A stretch of 64,000 bases of DNA, from positions 2,240,001-2,304,000 of the forward strand of contig CAVWGN010000001.1 of assembly GCA_963754655.1 (NCBI GenBank), in the 5' to 3' direction. The position numbers and the translations under genes were made by a program. The notes beneath the pieces are model-generated. The model saw only the letters and a list, made by a program, of their open reading frames with translations. It was not told the origin of the DNA and did no database searches. This stretch comes from an uncultured Chlamydiae bacterium. GTDB lineage: Bacteria; Chlamydiota; Chlamydiia; Chlamydiales; Parachlamydiaceae. Position 1 is the stretch's first letter. Each line of letters begins with the position of its first letter. Shown here in pieces: positions 19,161 to 20,279 of this stretch.

Positions 19161-20279
19161 ATGGATTCTTTATCTTCCTCTGGTTTGTTTTCTTATGAAC
19201 CTTTTGATTTTGATTGTTTAATTTTTCCCAATTCTGAGGATCAATTTGATAAGACTAAGGCGTTACCTGTAACTGATAATGAAATAAGTTCAAATAGCGC
19301 TTTTCTATCTGCTGAAGAATCTATTCAGAATTCTTTTTTTTTAAATCAAGAATTTTTTGCAAATCTTGATTTCCTTGAAACTGAACCTCTTCTCCTGCAA
19401 GGAAGAGTCACTACGGAACTCCCTTTGGCTTTAGCGCAGCCAATTTCTAATGTGGCAATCCCGATTATTCCAGTTTCTCCTGAACCTGAGGTTTCACCTA
19501 ATCACCTTCTCCTGCAAGAAACAGTCTCTGCAGAACTGCCCGAGGCTTTAGCGCAGCCAATTTCTAACGCGGCATTCCCCTTTATTCCGATTTCTTCTGA
19601 GCCTGAGGTTTCACCTAATAAAACGAGTAAAAAGCGCTCAAGAACCACTTTAGAACGCTCCTCAACACGAAAAAAACAAAAGACAGAATCTTCATCTACA
19701 ACAGAACAGTCCGATGTCAATCCAATCAATGAAAAAGAAAAAAAAAGAGTGGCATCTCAAAAATTTAGACATCGACAAATAGAAAAAAGCCAGAATTTAC
19801 AGAAAAGCATAAAGGATTCAAAAACCAGAGTAGAGCAATTATATCAACTCTATCAGCCTCATCGCTCGATAGAATTAGAGTTAAACCTTTTCATGGAGGA
19901 AAGTGAGTCAGAGCTTGAAACACATAGTGCGGAAATTAAAGAATTTAAAGAAACGCTGAAAGATTTACCAGCCGATCAACAAAAACAGGAAATAAGGAAA
20001 TTAAAGAATAAATTATCTGCTCGAAATAGTAGAACAAAAAAAAAGAATTTTATAGCTTCTTTAGAAAGTCAAAAAGAATTTTTAGAAAATAAGATTAAGG
20101 AAGTTTTTTCTAGCGCAATTGATAGTTTAAATCAACAAAACTTAAATTTGTTTCAAGAGAATAAACAATTGAAACAAGAAAATGCCCTATTAAATCAAAT
20201 GCTAAGCTCTCAGAGAAATATCTCTTCTGAATCAAATGCCTTCTCACAATCCTATTGGCCATCAGACAAGCAATATTAG
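19161..20279 (+). CDS. Eukaryote-like bZIP-domain protein (candidate nuclear effector)
   Basis: RKLKNKLSARNSRTKKKNFIASLESQKEFL matches N-x7-R-x9-L-x6-L; second degenerate basic-zipper upstream; KKRSR/RKKQK basic clusters. Confidence 0.75.
   Translation: MDSLSSSGLFSYEPFDFDCLIFPNSEDQFDKTKALPVTDNEISSNSAFLSAEESIQNSFFLNQEFFANLDFLETEPLLLQGRVTTELPLALAQPISNVAIPIIPVSPEPEVSPNHLLLQETVSAELPEALAQPISNAAFPFIPISSEPEVSPNKTSKKRSRTTLERSSTRKKQKTESSSTTEQSDVNPINEKEKKRVASQKFRHRQIEKSQNLQKSIKDSKTRVEQLYQLYQPHRSIELELNLFMEESESELETHSAEIKEFKETLKDLPADQQKQEIRKLKNKLSARNSRTKKKNFIASLESQKEFLENKIKEVFSSAIDSLNQQNLNLFQENKQLKQENALLNQMLSSQRNISSESNAFSQSYWPSDKQY

Follow-up and report, generated by a model that had tools for sequence, protein, structure and literature searches.

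A bZIP-type protein with the layout of a eukaryotic activator in an environmental chlamydia-type bacterium: a candidate nucleomodulin

Introduction

bZIP factors are considered to have arisen in eukaryotes. Among bacteria, TAL effectors of Xanthomonas are type III effectors that act as activators of host transcription, and to our knowledge they are essentially the only bacterial effectors that bind and activate host promoters directly. The locus described here raises the question of whether a chlamydia-type bacterium may encode a protein of the bZIP kind for the same use. The open reading frame at 19161..20279 (forward strand) of the analysed stretch of 64,000 nucleotides (the window) runs without internal stop and translates to 372 amino acids plus the stop. 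A sequence-only reading had taken its product, named P0001 hereafter, for a tandem bZIP mimic that binds host DNA or dimerises with host bZIPs, and had suggested that its two zippers might pair within the chain.

Results

The bZIP-like gene and its surroundings

The ORF represents a genuine gene, specific to its species, in an environmental bacterium of the chlamydia type; the features in and around it are collected in Table 1. The AT-rich intergenic region of about 300 bp that had been described in front of the gene was found there, and it holds a sigma-70-like match that carries little weight, because such sites were no commoner in the region than in shuffled sequences. The codon usage of the gene falls at the 64th percentile of the genome and is thus ordinary, so that composition does not point to a recent origin from a eukaryote. 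No RNA dataset was listed as carrying the gene sequence; one DNA dataset matched in part (soil metagenome X1, 12% of words), and its coverage was limited to parts of the Kdo hydroxylase gene and the dispersed repeat, being zero over the bZIP-like gene.

Table 1. Features of the bZIP-like gene and its neighbourhood (positions in the window; residues of P0001)
Feature	Position	Strand	Remarks
trmB-like methyltransferase (Methyltransf_4)	18154..18840	-	conserved left flank
AT-rich spacer	18841..19160		320 bp, GC ~20-21%; separates the divergent trmB and bZIP-like genes; left edge of extra segment
sigma-70-like promoter match TTGATA-16-TATAAT	18997..19024	+	11/12 positions
Shine-Dalgarno-like AAGGA	19148..19152	+	read from sequence; 8 nt 5' of ATG
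Ser-rich start, then acidic Phe/Leu-rich region	19161..19400	+	residues 1-80; net charge -13, Phe 13.8%, Ser 15%; predicted disordered
tandem duplication	19389..19619	+	114 nt, 84% identical; two Pro-rich units of ~38 aa (residues 77-114, 116-153)
bipartite NLS-like basic cluster KKRSRTTLERSSTRKKQK	19629..19682	+	residues 157-174; fits classical bipartite pattern
module 1, degenerate basic region and short zipper	19731..19856	+	residues 191-232; ends at Pro233
acidic linker helix	19857..19958	+	residues 233-266
module 2 basic region	19983..20051	+	residues 275-297; N283, K284, R291, K294 invariant
module 2 leucine zipper	20052..20204	+	residues 298-348
terminator-like hairpin	20299..20333		perfect 14-bp stem, 7-nt loop; between the convergent bZIP-like and Kdo hydroxylase genes
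Kdo hydroxylase gene	20343..21233	-	Pfam Kdo_hydroxy 376.7 bits; in same extra segment as bZIP-like gene
GC-rich palindromic dispersed repeat	21442..21893		452 bp, 206-nt arms 95% complementary; right edge of extra segment
methionine aminopeptidase (map) with SEC-C motif	21916..22809	+	conserved right flank

The flanking genes trmB and map lie side by side in four relatives but 3,075 bp apart here, and the Kdo hydroxylase gene was not found in three same-genus genomes. Contamination of the assembly by host DNA was rejected, since conserved bacterial genes flank the gene within a contig of 3.12 Mb; recent transfer from a sequenced eukaryote was also rejected, since no eukaryotic relative was obtained at E<=1e-3 from 1.84 billion protein representatives and the codon usage is native-like. 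The genome encodes four nucleotide transporters (TLC), the injectisome export gate SctV/HrcV (TIGR01399, 914.9 bits against a cut-off of 692.25, with 0 control genomes above it) and an Hc1 histone-like protein (C1:640178, 78.3 bits), which together mark the organism as obligate intracellular and of the chlamydial type. The models for the secretin (TIGR02516) and the gatekeeper LcrE (TIGR02568) were uninformative in this genome.

Such a setting could also be that of a recently gained passenger, neutral or decaying, in a variable spot beside a mobile palindromic repeat. The 3-kb segment is species-specific and bounded by a dispersed repeat, the gene, with its three metagenomic relatives, is otherwise an orphan, and it contains the internal 114-nt duplication. 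However, its frame of 372 codons is intact and accompanied by expression signals, and the relatives keep both the signature residues and the whole architecture at about 30% identity, which argues for long-term selection; we consider a passenger very improbable.

The C-terminal module carries a bZIP signature

It is clear from the translation that residues 279-308 (DNA 19995-20084), reading RKLKNKLSARNSRTKKKNFIASLESQKEFL, have the arrangement N283-x7-R291-x9-L301-x6-L308 with N-x2-SA-x2-SR, so that the bZIP signature reported for about 19995-20085 is indeed present. The basic-region signature N-x2-[AS][AS]-x2-[SC]-R appears as N283-KL-SA-RN-S290-R291, and the canonical R291-x9-L301 spacing is followed directly by a zipper of seven heptads. 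The d positions of this zipper are L301, L308, V315, L323, L330, L337 and L344, and the a positions are I298, K305, I312, I320, N327, N334, N341 and L348. The description of a zipper continuing in heptads with Asn was therefore borne out as far as L344, with Asn at three successive a positions (N327, N334 and N341), except that the register is interrupted by a one-residue skip between V315 and L323, which all four members of the family have in common. The skip, Lys305 and the three Asn at a positions are unusual for a bZIP.

The curated Pfam cut-offs are 27.6 bits for bZIP_1 (PF00170) and 22.3 bits for bZIP_2 (PF07716). Full-length P0001 stayed below all of them, with 20.8 bits for bZIP_1, 19.4 for bZIP_2 and 19.3 against 22 for a third model, whereas the 65-aa domain alone exceeded both cut-offs (29.4 and 23.8 bits, respectively) and a 90-aa piece gave 27.4 bits for bZIP_1 and 24.9 for bZIP_2. 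A match to the Pfam bZIP models, which had been proposed as a check, thus exists at the level of the domain. When the PDB was searched with phmmer, the best solved relative was the CREB bZIP (1dh3, E 5e-4, residues 275-316).

The strict pattern N..[AS][AS]..[SC]R-x9-L-x6-L occurred in only one of the 6,395 six-frame ORFs of the genome (1.19 million residues), and this ORF was P0001. A bZIP_1 scan of the whole genome gave ten places at E<=1; P0001 alone covered the basic region (profile 3-63), whereas the other nine covered profile 13-63 only. The motif is beyond chance expectation, because the strict pattern is unique in the genome and P0001 is the sole bZIP_1 match that covers the basic region. 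The bZIP_1 score by itself is weak evidence, since at E<=1 this model matched coiled coils in 14 of 14 control genomes, once even above the cut-off. Modest support came from a profile built with modules of other genomes only, which ranked P0001 first of the 6,395 ORFs (E 0.0057) and placed no other ORF of the genome under its inclusion threshold. In a protein-atlas feature search, bZIP clusters came top at 0.88, below the 0.9 level, which we take as a lead only.

AlphaFold2, run with the family alignment, predicted one continuous helix for residues 271-364, with block-mean pLDDT values of 86-97 up to residue 350 and 70 for residues 351-360. For two copies of residues 262-355, again with the family alignment, the predicted self-association scored 0.36 (mark 0.42, controls 0.00), a value that we count neither for nor against dimerisation. 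A Foldseek search of the PDB with the single-sequence model gave no match at E<=0.001, and its top rows were generic antiparallel coiled coils (p85 iSH2); the search is uninformative for long helices.

These data also bear on whether P0001 is simply a coiled-coil protein, secreted or structural, that resembles a bZIP by chance or convergence and that binds proteins and not DNA, possibly sequestering coiled-coil or bZIP partners of the host. Such a protein would fit the full-length Pfam scores under the cut-offs, the coiled coils that bZIP_1 picks up at E<=1 in every control genome, the heptad skip with its Asn-rich core, the off-by-one spacing and degenerate basic region seen in the relatives P0002 and P0003, respectively, and the generic coiled coils returned by Foldseek. 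On the other hand, the matches span the basic region and not the zipper alone, no family member has lost N283 or R291, no other ORF of the genome shows the strict signature, the 30 PDB matches of a profile made from related modules were all bZIP factors, and no control genome (0/14) matched at E<=0.001. We therefore regard a mere coiled coil as quite unlikely. That the C-terminal module is a true if divergent basic region and zipper of the bZIP type is supported by the domain-level Pfam scores, CREB as the best solved relative, the invariant signature and the continuous predicted helix.

P0001 shares with the eukaryotic CREB/ATF and Jun/AP-1 bZIPs (PF00170, PF07716; PDB 1dh3, 5t01, 1fos) the N-x7-R, R-x9-L and L-x6-L spacings, in continuous order, and a single long helix, which in P0001 is a prediction. 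It differs from them in being encoded on a bacterial chromosome, in having no close eukaryotic homologue and in scoring below the Pfam cut-offs at full length, and further in the heptad skip, the three consecutive Asn at a positions and the degenerate module upstream in the same chain. Basic regions of the plant and protist type with N-x2-SA-x2-SR are ACGT-core binders; the five base-contacting positions of P0001 are likewise N, S, A, S and R, but its Asn is followed by Lys and Leu and not by the usual Arg and Glu.

A degenerate module lies upstream

The second, degenerate copy that had been reported upstream is present, with the spacing K195-x7-R203-x9-L213-x6-S220-x6-L227, in which Lys195 replaces the invariant Asn. 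The stronger claim of a tandem bZIP holds only in part. In its favour, the module 1 positions of the family profile matched the basic regions of Jun, JunD, Nrf2 and BACH1 (E 0.004-0.03), and the relative P0003 has the full N-x7-R-x9-L-x6-L-x6-L motif at the module 1 position. Against it, besides the missing Asn, module 1 of P0001 reached only 15.4 bits with bZIP_2 (E 0.02), and BLASTP of module 1 with module 2 detected no similarity (E 0.25). Tandem basic regions are not known to us from eukaryotic bZIPs.

The N-terminal half resembles an activation region

Residues 1-188 of P0001 are predicted to be disordered. Both the Ser-rich start and the acidic, Phe-rich N-terminus that the sequence-only reading had pointed out were recovered in residues 1-80 (Table 1). 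We infer from their sequence that these residues are activation-domain-like, and by composition alone they are also a possible secretion signal. Each of the Pro-rich units that follow ends in PEVSPN, and a single such unit is present in P0002. The NLS-like KKRSR...RKKQK proved to be part of the bipartite cluster of residues 157-174, a putative NLS by its pattern, and P0002 and P0003 have a basic K/R cluster in the corresponding alignment columns. Many eukaryotic bZIP factors are ordered likewise, with the bZIP at the C-terminus after an acidic region and an NLS-like basic cluster.

P0001 has few close relatives

A search of 1.84 billion protein representatives at E<=1e-3 gave only three true relatives of P0001, all metagenomic (P0002, P0003 and P0005), and no eukaryotic relative bar one low-complexity artefact. 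This artefact was P0004, a catfish galectin-repeat protein, which was rejected as it matched only the Pro-rich repeat (residues 73-125). N283, R291, L301, L308, L323, L330, L337 and L344 are invariant in the resulting four-member family. Canonical DNA reading is not clearly conserved in it, because the spacing from Arg to the first Leu is x8 and not x9 in P0002, and module 2 of P0003 is without the SA and S residues.

Word-index searches returned P0001 itself or P0003 only, and no real contig of P0002, P0003 or P0005 was found in the metagenome, genome-contig and three viral scans. A candidate locus for a relative (L024) turned out to be an unremarkable enzyme gene with one peptide pattern in common. 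Neither 40 relatives nor, in the phylum at large, 399 other scored genomes yielded an orthologue of P0001; one match (G017, E 1.9e-4) was rejected as an unrelated coiled-coil ORF of 154 aa.

Other bZIP-bearing ORFs are scattered through the phylum

Of 401 genomes sampled from the phylum, nine gave bZIP_1 matches that cover the basic region (E<=0.001), with four above the Pfam cut-off; none of the 14 controls did. The genomes with bZIP-bearing ORFs include G002, G011, G139, G253, G334, G387 and others; the ORF of G387 has three basic regions and scores 47.7 bits with bZIP_2, and that of G139 is also tandem. When a profile of ten such modules was run against the PDB, all 30 matches were bZIP factors, among them AP-1 (the best, 4.5e-9), CREB, Fos, ATF, GCN4, TGA and the chicken CREB3 bZIP (chain 6iak). 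A family census matched 9 of 73 genomes, three of which had been absent from profile building. A profile comparison between alignments A1 and A2 was discarded as circular, since the two share rows.

All nine full-length proteins begin with an acidic part (net charge -8 to -20) that is rich in S/T/N/P/Q and in aromatic residues, and in all nine this part is followed by a K/R cluster and then by the basic region or regions. They thus have the three-part layout in common with P0001, and the combination of an acidic aromatic N-terminus, a bipartite NLS-like cluster and a bZIP, as judged from sequence, is real and recurs in independent ORFs of the phylum. Their bZIP regions are weakly similar to that of P0001 (BLASTP E 2.3e-4 to 5e-3), but they are not its orthologues: tblastn found none of them in the P0001 genome, and the P0001 family profile retrieved none of the other bZIP-bearing ORFs of the phylum. 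Most of them have short zippers ending in a Pro-containing motif, whereas the module 2 zipper of P0001 is the longest.

P0001 is one of a loosely connected set of proteins with bZIP modules that turn over fast and are dispersed over related genomes. Hence, it is not a lone mimic, and bacterial bZIP homologues, described as close to animal Jun, BATF and CNC, had been reported once before, in Endozoicomonas, a sponge-associated gammaproteobacterium (Zhu et al. 2018; PMC6213907). Both cases concern bZIP-type proteins in a host-associated bacterium, but P0001 is far from any eukaryotic bZIP, comes from another phylum and belongs to a set with tandem modules. Among open-access papers and bioRxiv preprints, we found no description of chlamydial bZIP proteins or of a bZIP-type bacterial effector.

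Discussion

Taken together, P0001 has the build of an entire eukaryotic bZIP transcription factor, and it probably acts on host DNA as a secreted nucleomodulin, a reading to which we give a probability of roughly 55%. P0001 would be exported through the type III secretion system of the bacterium and imported into the host nucleus by means of its NLS-like cluster. The C-terminal zipper would then dimerise it with itself or with a host bZIP, and the basic regions would be placed on a palindrome of the CRE or ACGT-core type. The acidic aromatic N-terminus may serve as an activation domain, or P0001 may instead titrate host bZIPs.

P0001 might also work where it is made. Chlamydial Hc1 is a eukaryote-like DNA binder that acts inside the bacterium, and this precedent suggests an endogenous DNA-binding protein, either a bZIP-fold regulator or a nucleoid protein, for instance of the developmental cycle, that is not secreted. 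The genome does encode Hc1, a promoter-like site of ordinary type, an SD-like motif and a terminator-like hairpin accompany the gene, its codon usage is native-like, and the secretion of P0001 is something that we infer; the Hc1 model (PF07432) was not among the Pfam matches of P0001. However, 150-190 disordered, acidic and aromatic-rich residues together with an NLS-like cluster have no obvious use inside a bacterium, and yet they are found in 9 of 9 full-length proteins. Moreover, the gene is absent from same-genus genomes and each lineage has its own version, which is the pattern of accessory host-interaction genes and not of core regulators. We thus hold an endogenous role to be unlikely.

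If P0001 does act as a secreted nucleomodulin, it would be the bZIP counterpart of a TAL effector. By analogy, it would work with the same parts, namely a secretion signal, an NLS, an acidic activation region and binding to host promoters. TAL effectors read DNA with repeats of 33-35 residues, whereas P0001 has a bZIP-type helix, and its sole internal repeat is the Pro-rich unit of about 38 aa, present twice. Membership of the TAL effector family was rejected, as no TAL family was among the Pfam matches of P0001 and it has no repeats of 33-35 residues.

A bolder extension, which we find possible but doubtful, is that environmental chlamydiae inject complete eukaryote-style activators, each with a secretion signal, an acidic activation region, an NLS and a bZIP, into their protist hosts and that the chains with two or three modules could fold back as single-chain bZIPs in need of no partner. 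Folded back by way of the linker helix, such a chain would offer the DNA two basic regions in parallel, and the distal zipper, beyond the conserved skip, would be left free to capture host bZIPs.

Chlamydial proteins that recur with all parts of a eukaryotic bZIP activator in place, some of them with tandem basic regions, would form a new class of candidate nucleomodulins. Their domains are small, so the candidates are directly amenable to EMSA, PBM and localisation work, and they would give a new handle on host reprogramming by amoeba symbionts. With the heptad skip, the Asn-rich core and the single-chain tandems, they would also amount to a natural experiment in bZIP design, and their scattered distribution, with a version per lineage, is relevant to the ways in which intracellular bacteria take up eukaryotic domains and reshape them. 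P0001 and the similar genes of related bacteria may encode proteins that are injected to reprogram host genes and, if this is true, they would represent a second, independent bacterial route to direct control of host promoters, after the TAL effectors.

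Architecture of the bZIP-like protein

The 372-codon ORF was present as the sequence-only reading had described it, and the main bZIP motif of its product (P0001) was borne out. Residues 279-308 (DNA 19995-20084), RKLKNKLSARNSRTKKKNFIASLESQKEFL, contain N283-x7-R291-x9-L301-x6-L308 together with N-x2-SA-x2-SR. If L301 is assigned to d, the d positions of this module (module 2, residues 275-348) were L301, L308, V315 and, after a one-residue skip, L323, L330, L337 and L344; the a positions were I298, K305, I312, I320, N327, N334, N341 and L348. The proposed L-x6-L zipper with Asn was thus recovered, with d leucines up to L344 and Asn at three a positions (327, 334 and 341).

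The acidic, Phe-rich N-terminus and Ser-rich start that had been noticed were also found: over residues 1-80 the net charge is -13, the Phe content 13.8% and the Ser content 15%. The putative NLS matched the classical bipartite pattern. In the AlphaFold2 model, residues 1-187 were predicted to be disordered and helices were predicted at 188-230, 233-266 and 271-364; when the family alignment was used, the last of these had a block-mean pLDDT of 86-97 to residue 350 and of 70 at 351-360. The AT-rich intergenic region upstream of the gene measured 320 bp at about 20% GC. Within the gene, a tandem duplication with locally raised GC (0.48) codes for two Pro-rich units, each ending PEVSPN, directly before the NLS-like cluster; their repeated Ser-Pro sites look like proline-directed kinase sites.

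Features of the bZIP-like gene, its product and the surrounding DNA
Feature	Position	Strand	Description
bZIP-like ORF	19161..20279	+	372 codons
Promoter-like site	18997-19024		11/12
AAGGA	8 nt upstream of the ATG of the bZIP-like ORF
Tandem duplication	19389-19619		114 nt, 84% identical
NLS-like cluster	residues 157-174		KKRSRTTLERSSTRKKQK; classical bipartite NLS pattern fits
Upstream degenerate copy (module 1)	residues 191-232		K195-x7-R203-x9-L213-x6-S220-x6-L227; stops at Pro233
Perfect hairpin, 14 bp	20299-20333		between the bZIP-like gene and its convergent neighbour
Kdo hydroxylase gene	20343-21233	-	376.7 bits; inside the extra segment
GC-rich near-perfect palindrome, 452 bp	21442-21893, also about 2052-2527		206-nt arms, 95% complementary, 40-nt spacer
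ORF without Pfam match	17044-18147	-	367 aa
ORF without Pfam match	22811-24661	-	616 aa
Two Rfam Acido-Lenti-1 matches	30912-30966, 31267-31321	+, -	37.6 bits against a gathering score of 37

Membership in the bZIP family

Coiled coils could produce bZIP_1 matches of their own: at E<=1 the profile rang in all 14 ordinary control genomes, one time over the cut-off, and the raw score on its own is therefore unconvincing. In the whole-genome scan at the same threshold, 10 places were matched; the bZIP-like ORF scored best and was the only one to span the basic region (profile 3-63), the remaining places spanning only the coiled-coil part (profile 13-63). The strict signature N..[AS][AS]..[SC]R-x9-L-x6-L occurred in a single one of the 6,395 six-frame ORFs of the genome (1.19 million residues), which was again the bZIP-like ORF.

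The proposed check with HMMER against Pfam gave a result dependent on length. Full-length P0001 stayed under the cut-offs of bZIP_1 (20.8 bits; cut-off 27.6), bZIP_2 (19.4; 22.3) and bZIP_Maf (19.3; 22), a 90-aa piece reached 27.4 on bZIP_1 and 24.9 on bZIP_2, and the 65-aa domain exceeded both cut-offs with 29.4 and 23.8, the trimmed domain scoring higher because the bias correction from the remaining protein drops out. The top three phmmer matches among all PDB chains were CREB bZIP (E 5e-4, residues 275-316); the NCBIfam search with P0001 gave no match.

The claim of a second copy upstream held in part. Module 1 gave 15.4 bits on bZIP_2 (E 0.02), but no mutual similarity was found between it and module 2. 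The module 1 positions of the family profile matched the basic regions of Jun, JunD, AP-1, Nrf2 and BACH1 (E 0.004-0.03), and P0003, a metagenomic relative, carries a complete N-x7-R-x9-L-x6-L-x6-L there.

Relatives of P0001

Word-index searches returned P0001 alone. Exhaustive searching of 1.84 billion representatives with HMMER yielded five proteins at E<=1e-3, P0001 included: P0002 (334 aa, E 1.3e-15, aligned over residues 50-350), P0003 (490 aa, E 6.8e-15), P0005 (an 89-aa fragment, E 4.6e-4) and a catfish galectin-repeat protein, rejected as a relative since its match was confined to the Pro-rich repeat of P0001. The three metagenomic proteins are singletons on contigs of 7.5, 2.7 and 1.2 kb. 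P0002 has the entire architecture in common with P0001 from the first residues on, and in P0003 the two-module unit is present twice. The invariant columns (L269, I278, N283, K284, R291, K294, L301, L308, K311, E314, L323, N327, L330, N334, L337, L344 and Q346) are, as aligned, the bZIP signature positions, the heptad skip among them. Two departures count against this: P0002 has R-x8-L in place of R-x9-L, and module 2 of P0003 retains N-x7-R-x9-L and lacks the SA and S residues.

Recurrence of bZIP modules in the phylum

At E<=0.001, bZIP_1 matched in 27 of 401 sampled genomes of the phylum and in none of 14 controls. Nine of the 27 had matches covering the basic region (beginning at profile position <=9): G139 (32.3 bits), the same-genus genome G002 (29.5), G011 (29.3), G334 (28.0), G253 (25.3), G387 (24.1 and 22.9 in a single frame), G315 (23.1), G184 (21.4) and the source genome of the window (21.2). 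The zipper-only matches of the other 18, with the basic region uncovered, were regarded as coiled-coil noise. The zipper part of bZIP_1 also gave nine identical matches in G378 (21.1 bits, profile 24-62), of which eight fell in a 479-aa frame and the ninth in a 96-aa frame; this is probably a multi-copy mobile-element coiled-coil protein and no bZIP.

When the ORFs were extracted, that of G139 was over the cut-off on bZIP_1 and bZIP_Maf, that of G334 on bZIP_2, and that of G002 on bZIP_2 at full length and on bZIP_1 as a domain. The G387 ORF reached 47.7 bits on bZIP_2. It encodes 387 aa (L034:1291-2454, minus strand) and has three separate, canonical basic regions, NCLSAARSR, NRITAKTYR and NRITAARSR, each followed by a short zipper with a Pro-containing end motif; it is the clearest tandem bZIP of the set. 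For four of these genes the assembly consists of 2-4 contigs, which places them on the chromosome. All nine full-length proteins have a common layout: the N-terminal part is acidic, with a net charge of -8 to -20, and abounds in S/T/N/P/Q and aromatics; a K/R cluster and then the basic region or regions follow.

In the alignment of ten modules N, A and R were invariant, and all 30 PDB matches of the resulting profile were bZIP factors (best AP-1, 4.5e-9), among them 6iak, the chicken CREB3 bZIP. A profile made from the eight modules of other genomes ranked the bZIP-like ORF first of 6,395 (E 0.0057), as the sole ORF below the inclusion threshold, which gives modest support. By BLASTP, P0001 matched G334 (E 2.3e-4), G253 (0.002) and G139 (0.005); no orthologues of the other genomes' bZIP-bearing ORFs were found in the window's genome. 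Within the family, the census with the module profile gave 9 of 73 genomes at E<=1e-4, six of which had supplied profile rows and so match by construction; G021, G414 and G415 were new. In G002 it also revealed two more bZIP-module ORFs, no further than 6 kb from the first. The three frames (319, 315 and 227 aa; G002:C4:563629-569518, about 6 kb, the first covered by locus L027) form a small paralogue cluster, of which the window's genome has none.

Genomic context

The contig that carries the window makes up 3.12 Mb of a 3.16-Mb genome with 38.8% GC. This genome encodes four TLC nucleotide transporters, Hc1 and SctV (over its cut-off); the source is a chlamydia-type obligate intracellular bacterium. 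The trmB and methionine aminopeptidase genes are 200-400 bp apart in four other genomes, two of the same genus and two of the same family, and 3,075 bp apart here. The additional DNA comprises the AT-rich spacer, the bZIP-like gene, the Kdo hydroxylase gene and the 452-bp palindromic repeat. The bZIP-like gene was thus gained at a conserved locus. No orthologue of P0001 was found in 40 relatives, nor did the family profile find one among the 399 other genomes of the phylum that were scored. Its codon usage is ordinary (64th percentile among 1,510 long ORFs) and its GC3 lies in the low tail (4th percentile).

Kdo hydroxylase was not found in the three same-genus genomes; two other genera have it elsewhere in their genomes (56-59% identity). 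The gene may reflect a lineage-specific change in how the lipid A core is modified. The palindrome looks like a MITE-type element and lies where the species-specific segment ends on the right. It is a member of a dispersed family, for whose arms 129 matches were counted in the genome; a similar sequence also occurs in G002. The Acido-Lenti-1 matches form an inverted pair, which may be another palindromic repeat instead of an sRNA gene. Among relatives, the 367-aa gene is conserved and lies in synteny.

Proposed mode of action

The bZIP domain type itself is already known. A report on Endozoicomonas mentions bacterial bZIP homologues (PMC6213907), and a survey gives 248 prokaryotic PF00170 matches (PMC7017128), which our control genomes suggest are largely coiled coils. 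Searches of open-access papers and preprints turned up neither chlamydial bZIP proteins nor a bZIP-type effector.

P0001 is the product of a bacterial chromosomal gene. Its disordered acidic region and NLS-like cluster are followed by a bZIP-type module that is divergent yet recognisable. The conserved skip splits the zipper into three proximal heptads and four distal, Asn-cored ones; as module 1 has about three heptads, a fold-back single-chain arrangement would be geometrically conceivable. From the N-x2-SA-x2-SR residues, interpreted through the structures of GCN4, CREB and plant bZIPs, a CRE- or ACGT-core-type site is predicted. Such bZIP-module proteins form a recurrent set, and the genome has a type III apparatus, through which P0001 would be exported; it would then enter the nucleus, dimerise through its zipper, bind such a site and either activate through the acidic aromatic region or titrate host bZIPs.
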